A stretch of DNA of 64,000 nucleotides from Cytophagales bacterium (lineage in GTDB: Bacteria; Bacteroidota; Bacteroidia; Cytophagales; Spirosomataceae), in NCBI GenBank assembly GCA_031411995.1, contig JANOCD010000057.1:28461-92460 (forward strand), read 5' to 3'. A program made the position numbers and the translations under genes. Positions 16,867 through 31,267 of this stretch are shown here, in pieces. How positions within the stretch are numbered: the first letter of the stretch is position 1; each line of letters begins with the position of its first letter. The notes beneath the pieces were generated by a model. It saw only the letters and a list, made by a program, of their open reading frames with translations. It did not search any database and had not been told where the DNA came from.

Positions 16867-18054
16867 ATGAAAACTGTTGACTCCTATAATTTTGCCGGCA
16901 AGAAAGCCCTCGTTCGCGTGGATTTCAACGTCCCGCTCGATGCGCAATTTACCATCACCGACGATACGCGCATCAAAGCGACCATCCCAACGATCACTAA
17001 AATTTTGAACGATGGTGGTTCGGCCATTCTGATGTCGCACCTGGGCCGCCCGAAAGATGGTCCAACGGATAAATATTCGCTTCGGCATTTGCTGCCAACG
17101 CTGTCGGAAACGTTTGGCCGCGAGGTGAAATTTGCTGACGACTGCATTGGGCAATCAGCCATCGACGCAGCTGCAGCCTTGCAACCGGGCGAAATTCTGT
17201 TGCTCGAAAATCTTCGTTTTTACAAAGAAGAAGAAAAAGGCGATGTTGGTTTTGCCGAAAAACTCTCGAAACTGGGCGATGTCTGGGTAAACGATGCCTT
17301 CGGAACGGCCCACCGTGCCCACGCCAGCACAGCCGTGGTGGGGCAGTTTTTTCAGGATCGGGTGTGCGGCTATGTGATGTTGGCCGAAATCGAAAACGCC
17401 GATAAAATCCTGAACCATGCCGAGCGGCCTTTCACCGCGATCATGGGTGGAGCCAAGATCTCGGACAAAATCCTTATCATCGAACGCCTGCTCGACACAG
17501 TCGATAACCTTATCATCGGGGGTGGCATGACCTACACGTTTACCAAAGCGCAGGGGGGCAAAATTGGCAAGTCGCTGCTCGAAGCCGACAAGCAGGAACT
17601 GGCCCTTGAGATTCTGAAAAAGGCCAAAGAAAAAGGGGTGAACATCATCATGCCCGTTGATAACGTCTGTGCCGACTCGTTCTCGAACGATGCCAACCGC
17701 CAGATTGTGGCTACCGGCGAGATTCCCGACGGTTGGGAAGGGCTGGACATTGGCCCCGAATCGGTTACCATTTTTGAGGCCGTGGTGGCCAACTCCAAAA
17801 CCATTCTCTGGAACGGCCCAATGGGTGTTTTCGAGTTCGAGAACTTTGCCACCGGCACCAACGCCATTGCTAAAGCGGTGGTGAAAGCGACCGAAGAAAA
17901 CGGCGCATTCTCGCTCATTGGCGGGGGCGATTCAGCCTCAGCCATCAATCAGGCAGGCTACGGCGACCGTGTCAGCTACGTCTCAACGGGGGGCGGTGCC
18001 TTGCTCGAATACATGGAAGGTAAAGTGTTACCGGGGGTAGCGGCATTGCAGTAA
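16867..18054 (+). CDS. pgk: Phosphoglycerate kinase
   Basis: [44 protein letters not shown]; start trimmed to MKTVD. Confidence 0.98.
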
Positions 18055-18058
18055 TTGA

Positions 18059-18106
18059 GTGATTTAGTGATTGAGCGAATTGCGCATCCGCTCAATCACT
18101 AATCAC
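18059..18106. repeat. Palindromic element between convergent pgk and cheBR genes (possible bidirectional terminator)
   Basis: gtgatttagtgattgagcg ... cgctcaatcactaatcac. Confidence 0.7.
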
Positions 18107-18107
18107 C

Positions 18108-21100
18108 CTACCCCACCGGCAAATACAGATCGAATGTTGCCCCTTTGCCTAATTTGCTGGTGGCTGTGATGAAGCCGTTGTGATTCTCAACTATCTTTTT
18201 CACGATGGCCAGACCAATACCGGTGCCCTGATAGTGCTCCCGGCCGTGCAAACGCTGAAACACACCGAATATCCGTTCGCTGTATTGGGGATCAAAGCCA
18301 ATGCCGTTGTCGGCAACGGTAATGTGGCAATAGGTTTTGTCAGGAAGCAGTTCTTTGTTGGTCAACTCACTTCCTTTTATGTTTCTGCTCTTTATGCTAA
18401 TATGGGGCGGTATGCCAGCATTGGAAAATTTAAGGGCGTTGCCAATGAGGTTGTACATGAGTTGCCGAAACTGAAACACAATGATGTTGGCCGAGCCAAG
18501 ACCAACCGCATCGACGGTGGCGTGTTTTTCCTGAATAGCTTCCTCAAGATCGGTAAGCACTTCAGCAACAATAGTGTTGAGGTCAGTGGTTTCAAAGACT
18601 CGGTCTGTCGTGTTCACCCGCGAAAAGGCAAGTAAGTCCTGAATCAGTTGCTGCATCCGGGCGGCTGCCAACTGCATCCTACCAAAATAATCTTTGCCGT
18701 TTTCGGTTAGGCTTTCGCTTTCTTTTTCAAGAATTCGATTGGCCAGCGTTTGAATTTTACGCAGTGGTTCCTGTAAATCGTGGCTCGATATATACGTGAA
18801 TGATTCCAGTTCTTTATTCATGTGGAGCAAAGCATCGTTCTTGTCGGCAAGGGTTTCGTTGGCTTCCCGTAGTTCGTGCGTTCGTTGTGCAACGGCTTTT
18901 TCCAGTTCTTTTTCCCGTGCTTTCTGGGTTTGCAGGTTTTTGTTTTTGGCATTCACCTGCTCGGTTACTTCGTACCCAAAAAGCAGGATGGCAAAAATGG
19001 CTTTATGCTCATTGTACATGGGCTGATAACTGAAATTGAAATACCGTAACTCAGGGGTCAAACCCTCGTCGCGGGCAATCATGACCGGAATCTCGATACC
19101 CACGTAGGGTTCTCCGGTGGTATAAACGGTATCGAGTAACAGATCGAATCCCTGCCCTTCTAATTCGGGCAGTGCCACCATAATCGGTTTGCCCTTTATT
19201 TCGCGCTTGCCAAACAAACTCTGGCACTGCTCATTCACCAATTCATACGTATGCTCAGGCCCGGTCAGGGTAGCCACAATGCCGGGAGAGGTCATCAGCA
19301 TATCCTCAAACAAAGCGGTCTGTATTTCCATTCGTTTGCGGGCCACAACCAGTTCCGTAACTTCATTGGCTACGCAGATAACCCCCGTTATTTGCCCGTT
19401 TGTTTCGCGCACCGGCTGAAAGGTAAAATTGAAATACCCGGGCGCGCTTTTACCATGCCGGTTCAGGGCAACCTCCATTTCGTTGATCGAATAGGGAATG
19501 CCGGTTTTCATCATGGCAAGCAGTTCGATCTCAAACGGTGCCTTGAGTTCGGGTAGGAAGTCGAACAGGGGTTTGCCCACAAAGTCAGGCTCCTTCCTGT
19601 CGACCATTCCTAAAAAAGCATCATTCGCTATATCGACAATCATGTTATCGCCCCGAAAAACGGCAATGCTCACCGAAGCCTGCAATACCAAATTCCGGAA
19701 CCGGTTGGTCAGTTCTTGTTCCTTTTCTTTGGCCCGAGCTGCTTCCGTAATGTCTTCTATCGACAGCAAAATCAGTTTCTCCGTACTGGTTTTACTATGA
19801 ATCTCACGGGCATTCAACAACATTACCCGCTCGCCGATTGTGGAGAAAGTGTGGGTCAGTTCAAAATCGTTGAAGGCCTTTTTCTTGGGCAATATTTCTT
19901 CGAGCAACAGGCGCAGTTCGGGAATATTCCACTGTTTATTACCGAGGTCATATACCAGTGTTCCTTCCGTTTCGAGTTCATTCACCCGGAATGTTTTGTA
20001 AAAAGTACTGTTGGCTGTTCGGACTCGCAGGTTTTTGTCGAGCACCAGCAACGGTTCGCGAATGTTAGCAATAATGGCTTCGGCATAGTCGCGGGCCGTT
20101 GTTACCTGTTCGTTGAGGCCAATCATCTCCTGGTTCACCACCGTTAGCTCTTCGTTGGTGCTTTGGAGTTCTTCTTTGCTGGTTTCGAGTTCTTCGTTCA
20201 GGCTTTGCAGTTCTTCGCTCCCGCTGAGGAGTTCTTCGTTGGCACTTTGCAGTTCTTCATTCACCGCTTCCTGATCTTCGGTAATGCTCCGCATATCGTC
20301 GCGGGTTTGCGCCAGTTCCTTCTTTAATTGTTGAATAAGAAGGTCTTTATCATCGTTTTTCGCCCTTGATTTTGTCGTCTTTTTAGGGCTACTGACGGTG
20401 GGCGGTTGGTTGGCGGCCGGGGTCTCGTGAAAGAGAACCAAGTAATGGGGGTCAATGGTATTGGGTAACGGAATGGCTTCGATAGATACCATACGCAAGC
20501 TGCCATTCACCTGCACCGGAATCGCTTCTTTTGTAACCGAAGATTTTTCTTTTTTTGCTTTGTGCAAAATGTTACGCAACTCAAACGCCAGGCCGTGTTT
20601 GGCCATCAATAATAAATTATGCGTGGGTTTGCCCGGTGCCTGTTCCAAAAAACTCCCCGTATTGCCCCGAAAATGCACAATGTCCAGGGTTTCGTTCACA
20701 ACCACGCCAGCGGGCGTATATTTATTCAGGATAATATCATCGGCTGTTTTCTGGAAATCAGTACGCATAGATTCGTTTTTGGGGTTTCCCTCGGTGGCAT
20801 TTGTGTCCTGTTTGCTAGGCCCGCTTGCCATCAGCATAAACCGACCGGGTACATCTTTACGGGTAAATAATTTTTCGGTTTTAGTGGCCGACGCAAACAG
20901 CTCGGGTACTACGCTGATCGTCTCGGATTTACCCAACAACAAATAGCCTTTGGGGTTAAGCGCGTAATGAAAGGTAGTCAGGGCCTTTTTTTGCAGGTAC
21001 GACTCCATGTATATCAGCACGTTGCGGCAGCTGATAAGATCGACTTTACCGAAGGGCGGGTCTTTCAGAAAGTTGTGCTGGGCAAACACACACATATCCC

Positions 21101-22280
21101 GTATAGGTCTTTTAGCGTGGTAGTGGCCATCGATTTTTATGAAAAACTCCTGTAGCCGCTTAGGGGATATACCCTCTGTTTCGATGGTCGAATAAACCCC
21201 GGCGCGGGCTTTGGCAATGGCGGGTTCGCTCAGGTCGCTGGCAAAAAGCTGAACCCGTTTCTGGTGGTCGCCCAGAAACTCCGTCAAACACATCGCCATC
21301 GAGTAGGCTTCTTCGCCGGTGCTGCAACCCGCCACCCAAATGCGGATGGGGTCAGCGGTGGCCTTGCTGTCGATAATAAGCGGAAAAATCGTTTCGCACA
21401 GGGTCGAAAAGATTTTAGGATCCCGAAAAAACGACGTGACCGGAATCAGCAGATCCTGGTAAAGCGCGTCCTGCTCAGATTTGTTTTTTCGCAGGTAGGT
21501 CAGGTAATCGGCGGGTTGCTCGTTTTTGTTGAGGGCCATTCGGCGCAGAATCCGCCGGCGAATGGTGGTCTGTTTGTAATACGTAAAATCGGTGCCCTTC
21601 CGAATACGCAGCAACGACAGTATTTGCCGAAACACATCCGTAGTCTGATCCTGAAGCGACGGCTCCGCGTCTACCTCCCCGTTGATGATCTTGGTTATTT
21701 CGAGCAGTTTTTGGGGCATTTCTTCCGGCGAAAGCACAAAATCGACCACCCCGGCCTGCACCGCACTGTTGGGCATTCCGTCATACCCTGCCGAGGCTTC
21801 GTCTTGCGCCAACGTAATGCCGCCATGATCTTTAATGGCTTTGAGGCCCTTGGTGCCATCGCTGCCCGTGCCCGATAACACCACGCCAATAGCTTCATTT
21901 TGATGTACCTCAGCCAACGACGTAAAGAAAAGGTCGATGGGCAGGTTAGGTTCTCCTTTTTTGGTGGTGCGGGGACTTAGCTGCAACACGCCATCGTTGG
22001 CCACCATCATTTTGTTGCTGGGCAGAATATAAATGTGGTCAGGCTCCACCTTTATTTCATCGGCTATTTCGAGCACCGGAATTTTTGTGACCTTTTGCAA
22101 CAGGTCGGGCAACAGACTTTCATGGTTAGGGGCCAAATGCTGCACCAACACATAGGCCATGCCCGAATCTTCGGGAATGGCCTTGAGCAATTTCTTGAAG
22201 GCTTCCAGGCCCCCCGCCGATGCGCCTACACCTACCACCGGAAACAGATTCGGTGACAGCGTTTTCTGGCTTTTTTTCAC
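18108..22280 (-). CDS. CheB-CheR-coiled coil-multi-PAS-histidine kinase fusion
   Basis: CheB GASAGG/QHL/SGTGSDG; CheR WVAGCSTGEEAYS, CRNVLIY; PAS folds; HisKA SHDLQEPLRKI; HATPase DNGIGF, GTGIGL; GTG start. Confidence 0.93.
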   Translation of the reverse strand: MKKSQKTLSPNLFPVVGVGASAGGLEAFKKLLKAIPEDSGMAYVLVQHLAPNHESLLPDLLQKVTKIPVLEIADEIKVEPDHIYILPSNKMMVANDGVLQLSPRTTKKGEPNLPIDLFFTSLAEVHQNEAIGVVLSGTGSDGTKGLKAIKDHGGITLAQDEASAGYDGMPNSAVQAGVVDFVLSPEEMPQKLLEITKIINGEVDAEPSLQDQTTDVFRQILSLLRIRKGTDFTYYKQTTIRRRILRRMALNKNEQPADYLTYLRKNKSEQDALYQDLLIPVTSFFRDPKIFSTLCETIFPLIIDSKATADPIRIWVAGCSTGEEAYSMAMCLTEFLGDHQKRVQLFASDLSEPAIAKARAGVYSTIETEGISPKRLQEFFIKIDGHYHAKRPIRDMCVFAQHNFLKDPPFGKVDLISCRNVLIYMESYLQKKALTTFHYALNPKGYLLLGKSETISVVPELFASATKTEKLFTRKDVPGRFMLMASGPSKQDTNATEGNPKNESMRTDFQKTADDIILNKYTPAGVVVNETLDIVHFRGNTGSFLEQAPGKPTHNLLLMAKHGLAFELRNILHKAKKEKSSVTKEAIPVQVNGSLRMVSIEAIPLPNTIDPHYLVLFHETPAANQPPTVSSPKKTTKSRAKNDDKDLLIQQLKKELAQTRDDMRSITEDQEAVNEELQSANEELLSGSEELQSLNEELETSKEELQSTNEELTVVNQEMIGLNEQVTTARDYAEAIIANIREPLLVLDKNLRVRTANSTFYKTFRVNELETEGTLVYDLGNKQWNIPELRLLLEEILPKKKAFNDFELTHTFSTIGERVMLLNAREIHSKTSTEKLILLSIEDITEAARAKEKEQELTNRFRNLVLQASVSIAVFRGDNMIVDIANDAFLGMVDRKEPDFVGKPLFDFLPELKAPFEIELLAMMKTGIPYSINEMEVALNRHGKSAPGYFNFTFQPVRETNGQITGVICVANEVTELVVARKRMEIQTALFEDMLMTSPGIVATLTGPEHTYELVNEQCQSLFGKREIKGKPIMVALPELEGQGFDLLLDTVYTTGEPYVGIEIPVMIARDEGLTPELRYFNFSYQPMYNEHKAIFAILLFGYEVTEQVNAKNKNLQTQKAREKELEKAVAQRTHELREANETLADKNDALLHMNKELESFTYISSHDLQEPLRKIQTLANRILEKESESLTENGKDYFGRMQLAAARMQQLIQDLLAFSRVNTTDRVFETTDLNTIVAEVLTDLEEAIQEKHATVDAVGLGSANIIVFQFRQLMYNLIGNALKFSNAGIPPHISIKSRNIKGSELTNKELLPDKTYCHITVADNGIGFDPQYSERIFGVFQRLHGREHYQGTGIGLAIVKKIVENHNGFITATSKLGKGATFDLYLPVG

Positions 22281-22282
22281 GG

Positions 22283-22744
22283 CTATCGGCGTTTTAACGT
22301 ACTGTTGAGAATAAATTTTTCGGCTGTTGGCCGGGCCTGATCAGTGTTGGCAATCAGGCCAAGCACTTGTCCGATCAACTGTTTAAGTTTGTCAAATTCA
22401 GACGGTTTTTGAATGCAGTATTGAACCCCGTTTTTGAATAGGCGGTCGGCTATATCCTGCCCAAAATAAGTGGAGAGAATAACGACAGGAAGTTGGCGCA
22501 GGTCTTCATGATGCTTTATTTCCAGTAAACATTCAAAGCCATTTTTAAGCGGCATATTGAGGTCCAGAAATAGTACGTGAGGAAGTTCTGCTGACTTTTG
22601 AGCAAGAATTTGCATGAGTTCCTCACCGTCGTGAACTGTGGTCAGGGTGGAGTCTACGGGCAACTCGGCTAAGGCCTGTTTAAAAAAGAGGCAATCGTCT
22701 TCGTCGTCGTCGGCCAAAAGGATGTTAATCAGTGGAGTATCCAT
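22283..22744 (-). CDS. Single-domain response regulator
   Basis: LADDDEDD, FLDLNMP, ILST, QKP; start trimmed to MDTPL. Confidence 0.9.
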   Translation of the reverse strand: MDTPLINILLADDDEDDCLFFKQALAELPVDSTLTTVHDGEELMQILAQKSAELPHVLFLDLNMPLKNGFECLLEIKHHEDLRQLPVVILSTYFGQDIADRLFKNGVQYCIQKPSEFDKLKQLIGQVLGLIANTDQARPTAEKFILNSTLKRR

Positions 22745-22846
22745 TAGCCAGTAAAATACAGAAAACGTGAACTGCAATCTACAACTAATACCCGGACTAT
22801 CAATTCGTTTCGGTAGGTGCCCGGACTATATTACCTGTTTTAAAAT

Positions 22847-23251
22847 CTACACTGCCTCCAGAATAGCATCCATCATTTTGTTATATCCTTCTTTCGTGGC
22901 AGGTTTGGTTTCCACAATGGCGGCCCCCAGTTGAAGGCACTCATCAACCAGTTGCGGTCCCACGTAGGTTGAATAGATGGCAACAGCGATGTTGCCGTAC
23001 TTAGCATTCGATTTGATCGATTCGAGCGTCTCTTTTCCCGACAGTTTAGGCATGTTCTGGTCCAGCACGATCACGTCGGGCAAGTCATCGGATGAGCCAA
23101 TACCATCTAAATAATCAATCACTTCCACACCATTTGTAACGCTGGGAAGCAGGTCTACATCAGGACGATTACTTAAAAAATCGAAGAAAAAAAAAGCGTC
23201 ATCGCTGTCATCTTCCGCCAATAATATTTTATGTTTTAGTTGAGTAGTCAT
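22847..23251 (-). CDS. Single-domain response regulator
   Basis: LAEDDSDD, VLDQNMP, IYST, TKP; start trimmed to MTTQL. Confidence 0.88.
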   Translation of the reverse strand: MTTQLKHKILLAEDDSDDAFFFFDFLSNRPDVDLLPSVTNGVEVIDYLDGIGSSDDLPDVIVLDQNMPKLSGKETLESIKSNAKYGNIAVAIYSTYVGPQLVDECLQLGAAIVETKPATKEGYNKMMDAILEAV

Positions 23252-24530
23252 ATTGAAACACAGGTAGTTTAATACTAAACGTTGCGCCTTCCCCTTCCTT
23301 GCTTTGTGCCTTAATTGTTCCGTGGTGTCGATCAATAATTCGCTTCGTAATGGCTAATCCAATACCTGATCCCTCATAGGCCTCTTTGGTGTTCAGGCGC
23401 TGAAACAGCGAAAAGACTTTCTCGGCATATTGCTCATCGAAACCAATGCCGTTGTCGCTAATTTGAATACAACAATAAGCCGGCTTCGTTTCCTGATTCG
23501 ACTCATTATCTGATTTAAGCTCACCCCGAATAGTCAGTTCAGGTCTCGTATCGGGCCGACTGAACTTTATGGCGTTACTAATGAGATTTTGAAATACCTG
23601 CCTGATTTGGCCCCGGTTCACCTCAATTGTCGGCAGTTCATCTACCCGCACCACCGCTTTTTTTTCCGTAATGAGCAGGTCGAAATCATTCAATACATCC
23701 GCTATAATATCGTTCAGATCGGTCGGGGTAAAAGCATCCGCATTGGTCGACAGCCGGGAGTAAGTCAGAATGTCGACAATCATCGTTTTCATTCGGTTCG
23801 ATGAGTCGATTATCTTCTCCAGATGTTTAACACTGTCGTCGGGCAATTCACCGGTATGTTTGTTTTTGAGCATCCCGGCAAAAATCTGGATTTTACGCAG
23901 TGGCTCCTGCAAGTCGTGCGAAGCCACCGAGGCAAACTGAAGCAAATCATGATTGCTGACTTCCAGGGCCACATTGGTTTGAGCCAATTGCTCAATATTT
24001 TGCTCCAGTAATTGCTGATTGGCCTTCTGCATGGTCAGATCGGTCAGAATCATACTAAGAGAAATACCTTCGTCGAGTTCGAGGGCGTTCACCGAAAGCT
24101 GGCAAGGAATCAGGTTGTGTTGCCCCCGAATGAGTAGTTCGATTTTGTTATCGTCTGTCCACCCTTCCTCGAATAAATCAACAAAGGCTTGAGCTGATTG
24201 TGGGGCAACAAACTCACTGAACGACATCCCAATAACCATCGACAGCGGCAAGCCAACCATCGACGCAAACATGGAGTTGCAATACACAATGAGGCCTGCA
24301 CTGTTGAGTGTTACAGCTCCCTCGTTCATGGTTTCGATGAAAACCCGGTAGGTTTGGTCAGCCGTTTTAAGGGTGTAGAGTTGGTGACCATCTTTCCCCT
24401 CCACCACGAGCGCGTCTACCTGACCCGTTCGAATAGCGTGAATGGTGTCGGTAGCTTCTTCCAACTGCCTGCTCAGATGCTCGTTTTCCTCAATAAGTTG
24501 TTCGTATGTTTTGGTTTCGTTCATCAACAT
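23229..24530 (-). CDS. PAS-domain sensor histidine kinase (Kai-associated)
   Basis: N-terminal coiled coil EEATDTIHAIRTGQVDALVV, PAS, SHDLQEPLRKI, DNGIGF, GSGIGL. Confidence 0.92.
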   Translation of the reverse strand: MLMNETKTYEQLIEENEHLSRQLEEATDTIHAIRTGQVDALVVEGKDGHQLYTLKTADQTYRVFIETMNEGAVTLNSAGLIVYCNSMFASMVGLPLSMVIGMSFSEFVAPQSAQAFVDLFEEGWTDDNKIELLIRGQHNLIPCQLSVNALELDEGISLSMILTDLTMQKANQQLLEQNIEQLAQTNVALEVSNHDLLQFASVASHDLQEPLRKIQIFAGMLKNKHTGELPDDSVKHLEKIIDSSNRMKTMIVDILTYSRLSTNADAFTPTDLNDIIADVLNDFDLLITEKKAVVRVDELPTIEVNRGQIRQVFQNLISNAIKFSRPDTRPELTIRGELKSDNESNQETKPAYCCIQISDNGIGFDEQYAEKVFSLFQRLNTKEAYEGSGIGLAITKRIIDRHHGTIKAQSKEGEGATFSIKLPVFQYDYSTKT

Positions 24531-24844
24531 TACTTCTTGATCCCTAGTCCTGACAACACTCGTTGCGTCTCCGACAAATCGCCGATCATACGCCGTTCGG
24601 GGAGAGGAGCTATTTTTACTAACAAGGGTAAGGCTATCAATTGTTCTTCTTCGGCTAGTTCGGGTTGCTGATGCACATCAATAATTTCGAGTGAGTAATT
24701 GCCGGGGAGGTAGGTCTCGCAGATTTGCTTAAGGTTGGTAATTGCCCGTATCGAGTTTATGGAGGCTCCCGTTATAAACAAGCGCAACACATATTGTTCA
24801 TGCCCGCCGGAGTTATCAACCTGTTTGTCAGCCTGTTCTGCCAT
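24530..24844 (-). CDS. kaiB: KaiB-family protein (second copy)
   Basis: LRLFITG, LEIIDVHQQPELAE, ALPLLVK, MIGDLS. Confidence 0.88.
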   Translation of the reverse strand: MAEQADKQVDNSGGHEQYVLRLFITGASINSIRAITNLKQICETYLPGNYSLEIIDVHQQPELAEEEQLIALPLLVKIAPLPERRMIGDLSETQRVLSGLGIKK

Positions 24845-24845
24845 A

Positions 24846-25151
24846 TCATTTCGTGGCAGGGCGGATATTCAATCCAACCAGCACTTTTTCTTCATTCGAT
24901 AAATCGCCGATGATTTTTCGGATCGGCTCCGGCACTTTCTTCACCAGGGTTGGAATGGCCAGAATCTGATCGCCTTCTGCTAATTGCGGTTGCAGCAGCA
25001 GATCGACCACCTCAATGGTATATTTATCTTTCAAATGCTCTTCACAATACCGCTTCAGATTACTCAGCGCGGTTAACGATTTGGGGGTATTGCCCGCCAC
25101 GTAGAGCCGTAGCTCATATAACTCCTGTTCCTGTGTCATCTTATTCTTCAT
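24846..25151 (-). CDS. kaiB: KaiB-family protein
   Basis: [36 protein letters not shown]. Confidence 0.94.
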
Positions 25152-26853
25152 TGTGCCGGTTGCGGGTCATCTGAGCGCGAGTCTTTTCAATTACTTCGTT
25201 CCGCAACTCATCTTCTACATAACTTCGGTTCAACTCTTCCTGCACCGATTCAAATTCTTCCCGTAAACTAGCAATCCGGGATTCTAGCACGGTGCGTTTG
25301 CGCTCAATTTCACGGTCTTTCCGCCCGACAGCATGAGTGCGCAGCACTTCTCCAGTTTGGGAGAGTAGTTCCTGAGCCTCGCGGGCCGAGCCGGTCAGCA
25401 CACCGTCGGGGCCTAAATACACGTCGACCAGGTCAAGGCCTTTATCCGTAATCACGAATTCGCGCACCTGATTGGAGTGTTTCATTCCCCGAGATTTCAT
25501 CACATATAACCCCCGGTTTCGCTCTCCATTAAACTCAATGTCTTTAATGGTCAGCCAGGCATCCACCAGCGACGAAACACCCTCGTCGGTTTGCTCATTC
25601 AGAACCATTTTCAGGGTTAGGGCCGTAAAAACGACGGTTATTTGTTCGGCCTGCAAAAAGTCGATTAGTCGAATCAGCATTGATTTCACTTCACTCACCG
25701 ACCCCACCGTAATCAGATTTGTGATCGGATCCAGTACAACGGCATGGGGCTTAAATTCCTTAATCACCTTATGAATGGCCACCAGGTGCATCTCCAGGCC
25801 GTTCAGGGTGGGGCGGGCGGCCTGAAAAAGCAGCAAGCCCGCGTCAATATGCCCCTGAAGATCCATGTTGATGGACTTCATATTGCGACAAATTTGCTGG
25901 GGAGACTCCTCAAACGCGAAAAAAACGCAACGTTCCCCCCGCCGACAGGTTTCATCCACAAAACTGGCGGCTATACTGGTTTTGCCGGTGCCGGCAGTCC
26001 CGGAAATCAGCACACTGCTACCCCGGAAAAGCCCTCTCCCATCCAGCATTTTATCCAAAGCGGGTATACCGGATGAAATACGTTCCGACGAAACAGGATG
26101 AGTTAAGGTAAGTGATGTAACGGGCAACACCGAAATTCCCTCTTTATCAATCAAAAATGGGTATTCATTGGTGCCATGCAGCGATCCCCGGTATTTCACT
26201 ACACGCAGCAGACGGGTCGAAATCTGGTTGCTCACCCGGTGATCGAGCAGAATAACGCAGTCCGAAACATATTCTTCAAGACCATACCGGGTTAAGCTTC
26301 CCTCACCTTTTTCGCCGGTAATGATGGTTGTAACTCCTTTATTTTTCAACCACCCGAACAATCGCCGGATTTCGGCCCGCAACACGCCCTGATTGGTCAA
26401 GCCTGAAAACAGATTTTCGATAGTGTCGAGCACCACCCGTTTGGCCCCAATGCTGTCGATGGCATACCCCAGGCGAATAAATAGTCCTTCTAAGTCATAC
26501 TCGCCCGTCTCTTCTATTTCCTGTCGCTCAATATGCACATGGTCAACGCGAATGAGCTTATCAGCCTGTAGTTTATCTAAATCAAAACCCAGCGAAACCA
26601 CATTCATGGCCAGTTCTTCGGCCTTTTCCTCAAAAGCCATAAACACACCCGGCTCGCCAAATTCCAGGGCACCACGCACAATAAACTCAATAGAAAACAG
26701 CGTTTTTCCGCAACCGGCACTTCCACAAATAAGCGTTGGCCGACCTTTAGGGAGTCCTCCACCCGTTATTTCATCTAAACCGTTTATTCCAGTTGGTGAT
26801 TTAGGAAGTGTATGAAGGGGGGCTGTTAATTCAGGAAAAACAGTCAGATTCAT
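25141..26853 (-). CDS. kaiC: KaiC double-domain ATPase, KaiC2-like
   Basis: Walker A GSAGCGKT and GTAGTGKT, catalytic EE in both domains, VSSLVD phospho-site, [14 protein letters not shown], coiled-coil tail. Confidence 0.95.
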
Positions 26854-26961
26854 TAACTGATCGTGTATGATGTTGGGAACTAAGCCCTCCGAAAATGGGC
26901 CTGATTCTTAAAGGTATCACATCTCGAAAAAAGCATCGACACCCATCAACAAAATGTTAGG

Positions 26962-28464
26962 CTACGGGATACTATCACCCGGCTTCTTGGCAGTAAACAG
27001 TAGAGCTTTAATCTGTTCCAGGTCTTTGTCGCGACCCTGTCGGAGATCGTCCAGAGAGTAATTAACCGGATAATCGGGTAAGACCCCCCGCCCGGTATCC
27101 TGCCCTGGCAACGGAAGCCGGATGCGGTAGGCCGGAATTTTCACGATCATTTGGGTGTTGGGCAGTTCCACAAAAAAGCTTTGCCCGGCATTGCACCCAT
27201 ACGCCCCGCCACCCGTTTCGCGACCCACAATTTTAACGTTGGCGTTGAACTGCCGGGCCAGTGCCGGAAAAATAGCTGCTGCCGAAAACGACATCCCATC
27301 GGCCAGAATCAGTATGGGGCCATCGAAGCGGTTGGTTTTGTGCGGTCGCGTAAGCCGGCGATAGGTGGGCAGTTGAAGGTTCCCGTTGTTGTCGCGCCGA
27401 AGCCGGAAATGCAAATCAATGTAGGCAAAGGGACCACTAATCCACGTTTTGGCCCCCTCCACGCGGGCACTGCGCTGATTGGCCACCGTCGAATCCCAAA
27501 ATATAAACGGGCGGTCCACCACGTAGCGCAGCAGATCGCGGCAGGTTTGCGCACTGCCCCCCAGGTTGCCGCGCACGTCGATCACCAGTTGCCGAATATT
27601 CCGTCGTTTGATTTCGTCAAAAACGGTGGCAAACGACCGACGCATAGGCCCGTCGCCGAACCGTTCCAGTTTCAGGATGGCCACCGCCGAATCCTGCCTG
27701 ACAACCGACAGCCGCATGCCCCGCCGGTCGAGCACGGTGCGGGTTGGCAGGGCCAGTTTTTGCCGCCGAATGGTGTCGGCTTTCGCATTACGGGCCAACC
27801 GCCGTGCCGACATTGGCCGCGCCAAAATGGACACGGTTCTGACTCGTCCGCTCGAATCACGCAGGCCAACTGTTAAGGTGTCGCTGAATCCAAACGTAGC
27901 CCGATAAAGGGCCGGAAAAACCACCGACAGCATACCATCCTGGGCTGCTTTGGTGTATCCATCGCCCCAAACCATTGGTTTGAACTGCCGGATCAGGTCA
28001 ACGGCTGTGTGATTATCGAGGCTGGTAATTTCTTCAAAAGCCGCCACTCCGGTTGTTTGCAGGGGCCGCGTGGCCACAAACATTCGTTCGCCTTTCACCA
28101 ACACCGAAATAGGTAACGGAGGCTGACGGAGTTGCTTCAGGTAGCGTTGGCGTTCTTTAGAATTTGTCAGGCTGGTGTGGGCGCACCGAATCTGTCCAAT
28201 GTAGGGGCGAATAATGAGTCCGAACTCCACATCGCGCATAGGCTGATTCATTTTAGCCATTGTCTGACCATACAAAAGGGCCAAACTATCGGGTGTGTTA
28301 TACCGGTATAAGCCGGGGTGCAGTTCGGAGAGTGCCCGTTGCAGGGCGTCAAAATCCTGTCGCAGTTCATCGGGGCTGAACTGGCGATAGGGGTTATAAT
28401 CGGTTGACTGGGCAACCGAACAAACAGAACTCAAAGTCAACAAAAACGTGAGTAGGTGCTTCAT
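26962..28464 (-). CDS. S41-family peptidase, secreted
   Basis: HPGLYRY, IRCAHT, IDVRGNLGG, SFSAA, GRETGG, GVLPD. Confidence 0.88.
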   Translation of the reverse strand: MKHLLTFLLTLSSVCSVAQSTDYNPYRQFSPDELRQDFDALQRALSELHPGLYRYNTPDSLALLYGQTMAKMNQPMRDVEFGLIIRPYIGQIRCAHTSLTNSKERQRYLKQLRQPPLPISVLVKGERMFVATRPLQTTGVAAFEEITSLDNHTAVDLIRQFKPMVWGDGYTKAAQDGMLSVVFPALYRATFGFSDTLTVGLRDSSGRVRTVSILARPMSARRLARNAKADTIRRQKLALPTRTVLDRRGMRLSVVRQDSAVAILKLERFGDGPMRRSFATVFDEIKRRNIRQLVIDVRGNLGGSAQTCRDLLRYVVDRPFIFWDSTVANQRSARVEGAKTWISGPFAYIDLHFRLRRDNNGNLQLPTYRRLTRPHKTNRFDGPILILADGMSFSAAAIFPALARQFNANVKIVGRETGGGAYGCNAGQSFFVELPNTQMIVKIPAYRIRLPLPGQDTGRGVLPDYPVNYSLDDLRQGRDKDLEQIKALLFTAKKPGDSIP

Positions 28465-28627
28465 AGGAAGTTATACTACAAAAAAAACTGAACCCAGCCA
28501 CAATCCAAAAGATTCCCACCCATGTACTACTGAAAAGACCGCAAAATCAAGTTCTCTGCAATTTAATAAATTGATAAACAGCATTTCCCGGGATGTGTTT
28601 ATATTGGCCTGATTATCAACCCTCGTC

Positions 28628-31267
28628 ATGCTTATATCTACATTTACTCTACCATTCAAGTTGGTTAGAAACAGTCTTGTCTGGCTTTGTATTACCCTGA
28701 TTTCAGGGTCTTTAGCCCTCGCTCAGGTCACGGTTCCCAGTGCGTTGTCGGCCACCCTCACGGCGACACCAACTCTGCTAACGGTTACCAATGGCACCAG
28801 CCTGTCGGCTACGGTGCGGGGCGGCACTCCTCCCTATAGCTACACGTTCAACGGACCGGGTGCCATCACGGCAAACGGTAGTTCGTCAGCTACGGTAACA
28901 AGCCTTATTCCCGGCGTTCATACCTTTACATTGACAGCCCGCGATACGGGTACTCCCGCAAGCGGAACAGTGGCCGCTGTTGCCAGCCAGTCGATCACCA
29001 CCACGGCCAGCGTTACGGTTCCGGGGGGTAGTTTGGTGGGTTCAACTACCATCTGCGCCGGGCAGTCGGCCACCCTGAACGTGGGAGTTACGAATGGCAC
29101 GGGGCCATTTACGCTGATTTACACCAGTACGAGCACAAGCAGCACGGGTGTGGTGAGTACTACGGTAACGAGTTACACCAGTGGCAATGGTATTGTGGTT
29201 ACGCCCAATGCCACCACCACCTACACACTTATTTCGCTGGCGGGTGCCAACGGCCTGGCTTTGCCGGTTGGGGGCGTAGTGGTGGTAACGGTTAATCCCA
29301 TTCCCACCCTCAACGTGCTGGGTAGCCCGGTGTTGTGCGGGTCGAATCCAACCAATATCACGGCAACGGGCGGGAGCAGCTATTTTTTAAATGGTTCGTT
29401 TCCGCAATCAAACACAACAGGTGCATTTTCTATTTTCCAACCGGGTTCCTACTCCCTTACGGCAACGAGTGCGGGCTGTTCGCGCTCACTCGTTTTCAGC
29501 GTGACAACCGGAACAACCATTCCTAATGCCAGTCTGGTGGCCAGCAGTTCGGTTTTGACCTGTTCCACTACGTCGGTTTCGCTGGTTGCCAGTGCGGGCG
29601 GCACCAACTATTCGTTTATCGGTCCGGGGCTTACTCAATCCGGGGTTAGTAATCAGGCTGTTGTGAGGCAGGATGGTATATACACGGTGATTATTTCGGG
29701 TTCAGATGGCTGTACGGCTGTTCTTAGCACCTCTATTTTCAGCAATACAGCTACCCCACCAGGCGGAGCTATAACACAAATTGGCCAGTTAAACTGCACC
29801 AATAATGTGGTTAGTTTGTCCGTAACAGGCGTAAGTGCGGCACCCAACTCCAACTATGTTTTCGGTGGTAATGGCTTACTCGTATCCACCCGAACGGGTT
29901 CGGTGACAGTAAGCGAAGAAGGGACCTATTCAGTAATTTACACGGGCACAAACGGTTGCCGTAATACGTTGACAGCCACTGTAACAAGCAACACAATAGC
30001 CCCTACAGCGACTTTACAGGCCAATACTAACTTGTCCTGCACAATCCCAGTTGTCACGCTGTCTGCCCCGGCGAACAACCAGGAGTATTATTTCTCAGGA
30101 CCAGGTCAGTTTATGGTATCGACTAGCAATTCTATGACGGCCAACGTTCCCGGTGTTTATTCAGTACTTGTTGTTGGCACTAATGGATGCATCGGTAAAG
30201 CGGTGAGTACCAGCGTTGGCTTTAGCCCCAATACCTCCTTTGCGTCGTTGGCGGTCAGTAATCAGATCAGTTGCACCGCTTCCAGCGCGACACTGGTGGC
30301 GGCTGGTACAGGATTAGTTTATGCATTCAGTGGACCGGGAGTAGCTCAGTTCGGTTCGGCCACCAGTGTTACTGTCAACCAACCCGGCAAATATTTTCTG
30401 ACAGTAACGGGCTTGCCCGGTTGCTCGGCAACGGCAGTTACCGAAGTATTCAGCAATACATCGGCACCATTTGTCAGCATCACCCAATCGGGTACGATTG
30501 GCTGTACTGGTGGCAGTATTCTACTAAGGAACATCACCGAGGGGAATGATTTCCGCTTTACTGGTCCGGGCGGTTTTGCTACGGCCAATACCAGCGGAAC
30601 AGCCACGGTCACACAGGCAGGCACCTATACACTCGTTACGACCAGTCCGCTCACGGGTTGCTCGGGGGTGACGTTCATTCCGGTGGTGGCCAACTGCGAT
30701 TCGAAAACCACCGCTCCGCCGTCGTCTACAACCGCCACGCCAACAACGTTCAGGATTCTGGCACCGGCCTATAATTGCCAGACGGGAGCGATAACGCTGC
30801 AAACCGCTGGTGGCGATGGCTCACCCATCACGTTCTTCACACCCGGAGTCACCCGGAGTTCTGCTCAAAGTACCACAGGAATAGTAGAAGCGGGTATTCG
30901 GTTCGATCCCAAACCATTGATTCTGTATGCCACCCAAAATGGTGTTACCGTAAGCATCACGTTTGATTTGATCGCTTTTTGCATTCGTGGGCGGATGGCC
31001 ACTGCCGAAACGGCTCCTGTTTTAGACGTAACCGTGCTGGGCAATCCAACCACGGGCGAATCTGTCTCGATTGAAGTTCGGGGTGCCGAGGGAAAATCAA
31101 TCACCTACCAGATTCGGGATTTGACAGGTCGTTTACTGACGGAAAAACAAACCGAAACAGCCATGTCGGTTGATCGGCAATCGCTTCGCTTAGGGTCAGC
31201 CGGTATGTATTTACTCAACATCTCGACTCCTACACAATCGAAAACAGTGAAGGTAATTCGGCAGTAA
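28628..31267 (+). CDS. Thr/Ser-rich T9SS cargo protein with Cys-containing Ig-like repeats
   Basis: Signal peptide; repeats of LxC...YxFxGPG...GxYxVxxxGxxGC; C-terminal T9SS type A-like CTD ending GMYLLNISTPTQSKTVKVIRQ. Confidence 0.85.
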   Translation: MLISTFTLPFKLVRNSLVWLCITLISGSLALAQVTVPSALSATLTATPTLLTVTNGTSLSATVRGGTPPYSYTFNGPGAITANGSSSATVTSLIPGVHTFTLTARDTGTPASGTVAAVASQSITTTASVTVPGGSLVGSTTICAGQSATLNVGVTNGTGPFTLIYTSTSTSSTGVVSTTVTSYTSGNGIVVTPNATTTYTLISLAGANGLALPVGGVVVVTVNPIPTLNVLGSPVLCGSNPTNITATGGSSYFLNGSFPQSNTTGAFSIFQPGSYSLTATSAGCSRSLVFSVTTGTTIPNASLVASSSVLTCSTTSVSLVASAGGTNYSFIGPGLTQSGVSNQAVVRQDGIYTVIISGSDGCTAVLSTSIFSNTATPPGGAITQIGQLNCTNNVVSLSVTGVSAAPNSNYVFGGNGLLVSTRTGSVTVSEEGTYSVIYTGTNGCRNTLTATVTSNTIAPTATLQANTNLSCTIPVVTLSAPANNQEYYFSGPGQFMVSTSNSMTANVPGVYSVLVVGTNGCIGKAVSTSVGFSPNTSFASLAVSNQISCTASSATLVAAGTGLVYAFSGPGVAQFGSATSVTVNQPGKYFLTVTGLPGCSATAVTEVFSNTSAPFVSITQSGTIGCTGGSILLRNITEGNDFRFTGPGGFATANTSGTATVTQAGTYTLVTTSPLTGCSGVTFIPVVANCDSKTTAPPSSTTATPTTFRILAPAYNCQTGAITLQTAGGDGSPITFFTPGVTRSSAQSTTGIVEAGIRFDPKPLILYATQNGVTVSITFDLIAFCIRGRMATAETAPVLDVTVLGNPTTGESVSIEVRGAEGKSITYQIRDLTGRLLTEKQTETAMSVDRQSLRLGSAGMYLLNISTPTQSKTVKVIRQ

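Follow-up and report, generated by a model that had tools for sequence, protein, structure and literature searches.

The window analysed here, a stretch of 64,000 nucleotides (nt) from a Spirosoma-like Bacteroidota genome (Cytophagales bacterium, GenBank assembly GCA_031411995.1, contig JANOCD010000057.1), was found to carry a compact string of Kai genes in the order kaiC-kaiB-kaiB, followed by the genes for a PAS sensor histidine kinase and a stand-alone receiver. As judged from its sequence, the locus is an intact member of the known class of KaiA-free KaiC2-KaiB systems with a PAS kinase. The reading that we favour, and rate as slightly better than even, is that of a KaiA-independent KaiC2-type cassette operating as an ATP/ADP-driven phospho-switch (hourglass), which is read out via the dedicated PAS sensor kinase and a single-domain receiver.

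All five genes are encoded on the minus strand. kaiC (25141-26853) specifies a protein of 570 amino acids (aa) of the KaiC2 / Rhodobacter sphaeroides type with two RecA-like rings; the first kaiB gene, kaiB-I (24846-25151), encodes a 101-aa orthologue of R. sphaeroides KaiB (KaiB-RS), and the second, kaiB-II (24530-24844), a 104-aa ancient KaiB paralogue. The PAS sensor histidine kinase (23229-24530; 433 aa) is composed of a coil and PAS segment (residues ~12-170), HisKA and HATPase_c, and the receiver, RR1 (22847-23251), comprises 134 aa counted from ATG. Every domain of the five-gene string was confirmed with Pfam and NCBIfam. The tight junctions listed in the first-pass annotation of this DNA were all retrieved from the sequence: the ATG of kaiB-I is placed 11 nt before kaiC ends (if the alternative ATG at 25139 were used, the two genes would be 1 nt apart), kaiB-I and kaiB-II are separated by 1 nt, the stop of kaiB-II and the start of the kinase share the base A (TAATG), and the ATG of RR1 is located 23 nt before the kinase stop, giving an overlap of 23 nt.

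The assignment of KaiC to the KaiC2 / R. sphaeroides type, with Ser-Ser sites and a coiled-coil tail, is supported by curated hidden Markov model cut-offs and PDB matches, on which the class assignment is based. The protein passed the NCBIfam model NF006799 (743.8 bits, cut-off 408) and failed the cyanobacterial model TIGR02655 (349 bits, cut-off 546), and the Pfam model PF06745 matched it in two stretches (E 3.4e-110). In the PDB search, its residues 17-569 aligned with R. sphaeroides KaiC (KaiC-RS, 8dba_A) at 649.6 bits (E 3.1e-194), compared with 333 bits for Synechococcus elongatus KaiC, and the cyanobacterial alignments ended near residue 491. The tail (492-570; 79 aa), which is rich in E, R and L, aligned to the KaiC-RS coiled coil with one small gap through residue 569. 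Walker A motifs are present at 44-51 (GSAGCGKT) and 285-292 (GTAGTGKT), the catalytic EE pairs E75/E76 and E315/E316 are intact in both rings, and the VSSLVD motif at 426-431 contains S427/S428, which correspond to S413/S414 in the alignment with KaiC-RS. Two serines at this site (PMC5520375, PMC10076222), along with a long tail, mark the KaiC2 subgroup in the literature. The closest KaiC proteins are those of Spirosoma telluris and S. endophyticum, with 80-81% identity. Both the motif inventory given at first reading (Walker A and EE in both rings, VSSLVD and a tail of ~80 aa) and the proposed KaiC2 type are borne out by these data, with 8DBA as the best match including the tail.

The genome of this non-photosynthetic soil heterotroph (7.7 Mb, 99.93% complete) encodes one double-domain KaiC and exactly two KaiB genes, and a whole-genome search found no second kai locus elsewhere. 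The KaiA model PF07688 returned zero matches in this near-complete genome, while a control search recovered KaiA in S. elongatus, in keeping with the earlier proposal of a system without KaiA.

To place the locus in a wider context, one genome per species was scanned, yielding 80 loci with a close KaiC relative, whose open reading frames (ORFs) were labelled by script. The order kaiC-kaiB-kaiB-sensor with tight junctions was found in about 75 independent loci of Bacteroidota and no fewer than seven further phyla, and because order and junctions recur to this extent, the arrangement is more than chance. It was present in nearly every Bacteroidota locus, covering Spirosoma, Dyadobacter, Mucilaginibacter, Pedobacter, Chitinophagaceae, Flavobacterium and Bacteroidales, and the same order was encountered in bins assigned to Acidobacteriota, Binatota, Planctomycetota, Nitrospirota, Chloroflexota and Pseudomonadota. 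In two-KaiB cassettes, the sensor always followed directly after kaiB-II, and the distance between the two (median -1 nt, interquartile range -4 to +5; 70 loci) marks the tightest junction of the cassette. A single kaiB was seen in eight loci, all of them non-Bacteroidota. Two tandem KaiB copies were revealed in 12 of the 13 other genomes of the class with KaiB above the Pfam cut-off.

The cassette is patchily distributed, occurring in 2/5 genomes of the genus, 11/61 relatives and 39/401 genomes of the phylum. The genus and relative counts resemble those of an accessory trait and, together with the non-photosynthetic heterotrophic host, are in line with a stress-response ATPase module without timing or phospho-cycling, as in Legionella pneumophila KaiBC, which is cited in PMC5520375 as being tied to stress resistance. 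Such a module would hardly account for the retention of all KaiC-RS catalytic residues, phosphosites and the coiled coil. The other extreme, a self-sustained circadian oscillator, is unlikely without a KaiA or KaiA3-like gene, and KaiC-RS itself is not self-sustained (PMC10076222). We consider this pair of explanations very improbable.

Some loci of the survey are recorded here for completeness. In other classes of the phylum (genomes of 2.5-4.9 Mb in the phylum sample), KaiB was mostly single. One contig in a bin labelled 'archaeon' (L072) carries a full kaiC-kaiB-kaiB-sensor cassette, reflecting either cross-domain transfer or a binning error. In a bin labelled Janthinobacterium lividum (L016, 9953-11680), the cassette proteins group with those of Sphingobacteriaceae and Chitinophagaceae, and kaiC is broken by a stop ahead of its tail; mis-binning of a Bacteroidota contig, damage to the gene or both are the probable reasons.

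Both KaiB proteins were recognised by the Pfam model PF07689 (cut-off 27), KaiB-I with 97.0 bits (E 5.2e-28) and KaiB-II with 89.8 bits (E 9.5e-26). IGDLS, already noticed in the two proteins before, was confirmed in both sequences, as was the conservation of the core KaiB motifs. The best PDB match of KaiB-I was 8fwj_M. In a tree of 155 KaiB sequences including KaiB-RS, 71 second-position KaiBs and KaiB-II of the window formed one clade (72 in total; Shimodaira-Hasegawa approximate likelihood-ratio test 98, stem 0.69), while KaiB-I, all first-position copies, the single copies and KaiB-RS were located on the opposite side. Since the second-position copies form one clade apart from the first-position and single copies, the KaiB duplication predates the spread of the cassette. 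The second KaiB evolves faster, with a mean column identity of 39% vs 51% for the first KaiB.

AlphaFold2 models of the two proteins were built with clade-specific alignments. The KaiB-I model showed the beta-alpha-beta...alpha-alpha-beta topology of the ground-state fold at a predicted local distance difference test score (pLDDT) of 68, with low confidence in the C-terminal half, and its best Foldseek matches were the ground-state tetramers 1VGL, 4KSO and 2QKE. For KaiB-II, only the thioredoxin-like fold was obtained, which is the fold-switched (FS), KaiC-binding form. The top Foldseek match of this model was Legionella KaiB (4KUN, template modelling score 0.78/0.88), followed by matches to KaiC-bound KaiB-RS (8FWJ, chain M), fold-switch-stabilised KaiB (5JYT, 5JWO) and the SasA N-domain (6X61, 1T4Y); a ground-state KaiB first appeared at rank 46.

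According to the AF-Cluster preprint (10.1101/2022.10.17.512570), V68E and I83K suffice to flip the KaiB prediction from the ground state to FS, and both substitutions are present in Legionella KaiB (same source). The diagnostic columns were taken as V73/I88 of Thermosynechococcus elongatus by residue and by their spacing of 15, which assumes that the preprint counts from residue 6. Hydrophobic residues occupied both columns in 79/79 first-type KaiBs, while second-type KaiBs were polar at both columns in 46/72 cases and at one column in a further 15/72. The corresponding residues in the window are I77/V92 in KaiB-I and E83/S98 in KaiB-II. Profile comparisons agreed in direction: the SasA N-domain scored 27.9 bits (E 1.3e-5) with the second-type profile vs 15.6 bits (E 0.098) with the first-type profile, and Legionella KaiB scored 95.9 bits vs 77 bits. 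KaiB-I is thus predicted to be of the ground-state or metamorphic type and KaiB-II to be thioredoxin-like, residues and folds differing in the expected direction.

The modelled folds are consistent with the idea of two KaiBs sharing out the work. A tentative version of it, which we regard as possible though doubtful, is a division of labour in which the metamorphic KaiB would gate or time KaiC, and the presumably fold-locked KaiB, as a free-standing equivalent of the SasA N-domain, would dock to the CI ring and recruit either the sensor via its coil-PAS module or a receiver domain. Fold-switched KaiB is known to bind the CikA pseudo-receiver.

The third component, the sensor kinase, was matched by Pfam PAS, HisKA and HATPase_c and displays the motifs SHDLQEPLRKI (H-box), NLISNAIKF, DNGIGF and GSGIGL. 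PF07689 did not match the kinase, and NF006800 scored 108 bits against a cut-off of 342; because a KaiB-like domain is lacking, the kinase is not of the SasA type. This agrees with the non-SasA character of the route suggested by the first-pass annotation, the N-terminus being made up of coil and PAS. Among 79 cassette sensors, the N-terminal segment (coil, AIRxGxVDAxVV and PAS start; residues ~12-95 in the window) was the best-conserved region, with a mean conservation of 0.66 vs 0.37 for the ATPase domain. This N-terminal module (N-module) is common to single-KaiB and two-KaiB cassettes of distant phyla, while the parts downstream of it vary between HisKA-HATPase (window), an extra PAS (Mucilaginibacter), a fused receiver (L059, L071) and HisKA_3 (L087). 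In the host genome, zero other ORFs matched sensor residues 1-72 at E < 1e-3, and residues 1-175 found one weak match elsewhere. Since the N-module is conserved and unique while transmitters are swapped or lost, the sequence data suggest that it is the part of the sensor that belongs to the Kai system and that the transmitter is interchangeable. The view of the kinase as dedicated to the cassette is strengthened by this uniqueness in the genome and by the conservation in cassettes of many phyla. In public records, relatives of the sensor carry generic names.

Two kinds of deviating sensors were observed. In L064 (by Pfam), L082 and L088, all Bacteroidales bins, the sensor has ~240 aa and consists of the coil-PAS part alone without a kinase core, both KaiBs being retained. 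In L046 (12328-13607, a long-read metagenome-assembled genome), the sensor is split into three ORFs, either because of frameshift errors or because the gene is decaying.

The conservation pattern also bears on the possibility that the PAS kinase serves as an input, sensing redox, oxygen or light and resetting or modulating KaiC, with KaiB-II and RR1 in the input branch. A redox-input role has been proposed for the kaiBC-encoded kinase of R. sphaeroides and Rhodospirillum rubrum (PMC5520375, PMC10931921), and the conserved part of the sensor is indeed the PAS side and not the transmitter. However, the PAS domain showed no recognisable signature of cofactor binding, the loss of the transmitter in the PAS-only sensors of L064, L082 and L088 fits a KaiC-binding partner better than a phosphorylating kinase, and gene order does not settle the direction. 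We regard an input role as unlikely.

A further explanation places KaiB-II outside of the kinase branch. It would bind CI constitutively, compete with KaiB-I or prime the binding of the latter, and in this way determine at which threshold, or with which delay, the KaiC switch acts. The permanently binding-competent fold predicted for KaiB-II is compatible with this role, and so are the core KaiB motifs kept in both KaiBs and the occurrence of the same sensor module in single-KaiB cassettes; because the latter keep the N-module, the sensor does not strictly need the second KaiB. The opposite is suggested, and only suggested, by the kaiB-II/sensor junction being the tightest of the cassette, by the invariable adjacency of the kaiB-II gene to the sensor and by the closer relation of KaiB-II than of KaiB-I to the SasA N-domain. 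On balance, a kinase-independent KaiB-II appears rather improbable.

RR1 was matched by PF00072 (E 3.3e-10), and its acidic pocket, phospho-acceptor Asp and conserved Lys are intact (EDD, LDQNMP, TKP). With the H-box and the N and G boxes of the kinase and these receiver residues, the classical two-component residues are complete. In L089, a locus from the same genus, an RR1 orthologue occupies the corresponding position. A stand-alone receiver is located downstream in about a third of the loci, and several family members have one directly upstream of kaiC instead. Because its position and presence vary among loci, the receiver is to be seen as a frequent but movable accessory, a point on which the first reading needs correction. 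RR1 as a fixed component was ruled out, the gene being downstream in only ~1/3 of the loci, upstream of kaiC in others and missing in the nearest named Spirosoma. Taken as a whole, the first-pass interpretation stands with regard to the KaiC2 type, the lack of KaiA and the non-SasA dedicated kinase; it does not stand for the receiver as a fixed part, and several of its points had already been published.

The phospho-switch mechanism that we favour is built on observed gene content, homology, conservation and predicted folds, with all binding and phosphorylation steps inferred from R. sphaeroides KaiBC. KaiC-RS assembles into a dodecamer via its coiled coil and needs no KaiA to phosphorylate itself; the ATP/ADP ratio resets it, KaiB lending help (PMC10076222). 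In the window system, KaiC would form a double hexamer through its C-terminal coiled coil, and because the A-loop is proposed to stay exposed in this assembly, KaiC would autophosphorylate S427/S428 at high ATP without KaiA. KaiB-I would then switch its fold, bind the CI ring, increase ATP hydrolysis and, once ATP/ADP falls, drive dephosphorylation. KaiB-II is predicted to be unable to adopt the ground state and would for this reason be permanently binding-competent, like the SasA N-domain, though as a protein of its own; it would bind the CI ring without a slow fold switch, report or tune the CI state and, together with KaiC, engage the N-terminal coil-PAS module of the sensor. The kinase would phosphorylate RR1, which, being without an output domain, may act by contacting other proteins, by serving as a sink for phosphate or by relaying it. 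As the cue that drives the system, the energy or nutrient state, possibly daily, would be expected in place of photosynthesis.

Several findings weigh against this mechanism. Single-KaiB cassettes keep the same sensor N-module, and KaiB-II is thus not required for the sensor link; likewise, gene order does not fix the direction of signalling (input vs output). Among the best 120 of 2064 homologues of the sensor N-module, no KaiB-sensor fusion with PF07689 was detected. The nearest named Spirosoma loci are without RR1, and 11/72 second-type KaiBs are hydrophobic at both diagnostic columns. Finally, AlphaFold2 predictions on shallow alignments of a metamorphic family are model-dependent, and the KaiB-I model reached a pLDDT of only 68.

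Downstream of RR1, two further genes on the minus strand had gone unmentioned in the earlier reading. A second stand-alone receiver, RR2 (22283-22744; PF00072 E 5.3e-16), follows ~100 nt after RR1, and 2 nt after its stop lies the GTG start of a 1390-aa CheB-CheR-PAS-PAS histidine kinase fusion (18108-22280), in which Pfam recognised CheB_methylest, CheR, PAS_4, HisKA and HATPase_c. Besides its two PAS domains, the fusion contains a coiled coil with EELQSxNEEL repeats. The fusion kinase is single-copy and the sole CheB-CheR fusion of the genome, and no chemoreceptor gene was found next to it in the genome context. RR2 and the fusion kinase are absent from the same-genus locus L089, and a true orthologue of the kinase adjoins the kai cassette in only one other locus, L046; the two genes were therefore ruled out as a conserved part of the cassette. 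The fusion kinase may be a co-transcribed neighbour, and a local functional link to Kai is putative.

Upstream of kaiC, an intergenic region of 108 nt (26854-26961, minus strand) is presumed to hold the promoter, followed by an S41 peptidase gene on the same strand. A sigma-70 consensus scan returned nothing in this 108-nt region, a consensus that is unsuited to Bacteroidota promoters; promoter and terminator scan counts did not exceed those of shuffled sequence and were uninformative on the limits of the operon. An Rfam search of positions 17000-29000 revealed zero RNA families. The G+C content amounts to 45.6% over the kinase/RR1/RR2 stretch (22001-24000) vs 50-55% in the flanks; this drop and the patchy occurrence of the cassette, taken together, may hint at its acquisition by transfer. 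Past the S41 peptidase gene lies a divergent gene (28628-31267, plus strand) for a repeat protein of 879 aa that is rich in Ser, Thr and Gly; its N-terminus is signal-like, and the product is probably secreted or exposed at the surface.

With regard to novelty, published work already covers the hourglass mechanism, the occurrence of Kai genes in Bacteroidetes, the two serines that mark KaiC2 and PAS kinases encoded beside kaiBC (PMC5520375, PMC10076222, PMC10931921). In R. rubrum, both kaiBC clusters have PAS kinases next to them (PMC10931921), and kaiB and kaiC are mentioned in a Dyadobacter species description (PMC11573002). Our literature searches found no paper describing a tandem kaiB pair in KaiC2-type operons, and the survey by Schmelling et al. 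2017 (PMC5520375) describes neither the tandem pair of KaiBs nor the two clades they form, nor the conserved module of the sensor. The recurrent kaiC-kaiB-kaiB-sensor order, the second-KaiB clade, the predicted split of KaiB folds and the conserved sensor N-module were not found in the searched literature.

KaiBC timers that work without KaiA have a much wider distribution than the cyanobacterial clock, and the Rhodobacter, Rhodopseudomonas and Legionella models gave no output pathway. With KaiC, a switchable KaiB, an apparently fold-locked KaiB, the sensor with its cassette-specific N-module and a receiver, the cassette comprises four to five defined proteins that lend themselves to reconstitution. 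It is found in culturable Bacteroidota, and a natural pair of KaiB paralogues, each fixed in or biased to one fold, would be useful for work on fold-switching. If the division of labour between the KaiBs holds true, the four-gene cassette would represent a general output route of KaiA-less Kai systems, and the arrangement of kaiB beside a kinase would resemble an unfused SasA precursor. If the link to the kinase fails, the locus is one more member of a known, common family, the cassette being common in public genomes.

Of the characterised systems, R. sphaeroides KaiBC (8DBA, 8DB3, 8FWI, 8FWJ; Pitsawong et al. 2023, PMC10076222) is likewise without KaiA; its KaiC aligns end to end with that of the window, its KaiB is the orthologue of KaiB-I, and its kaiBC operon also encodes a PAS histidine kinase (PMC5520375). 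Unlike in R. sphaeroides, a second, predicted fold-locked KaiB lies between kaiB and the sensor in the window, the sensor is followed by a stand-alone receiver, and the host belongs to the Bacteroidota and is non-photosynthetic. With SasA-RpaA, the output of the cyanobacterial KaiABC clock (6X61, 1T4Y), the locus shares a KaiB-like thioredoxin-fold unit beside a histidine kinase and a response regulator. The differences are that the window encodes this unit as a protein of its own, that its kinase has coil-PAS at the N-terminus, that its regulator is without a DNA-binding domain and that the similarity between KaiB-II and the SasA N-domain is weak (24-27% identity). The KaiB-II model matched no structure better than that of Legionella pneumophila KaiB (Lpp1115, 4KUN), whose crystals show the thioredoxin-like fold; the structure search returned one KaiB for Legionella, whereas the window pairs a ground-state-type and an FS-type KaiB in one operon. 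Synechocystis KaiB2-KaiC2 and the group of Bacteroidetes that encodes only KaiB2/KaiC2-type proteins (Schmelling et al. 2017, PMC5520375) have the two-serine signature in common with the window and are KaiA-independent as well.

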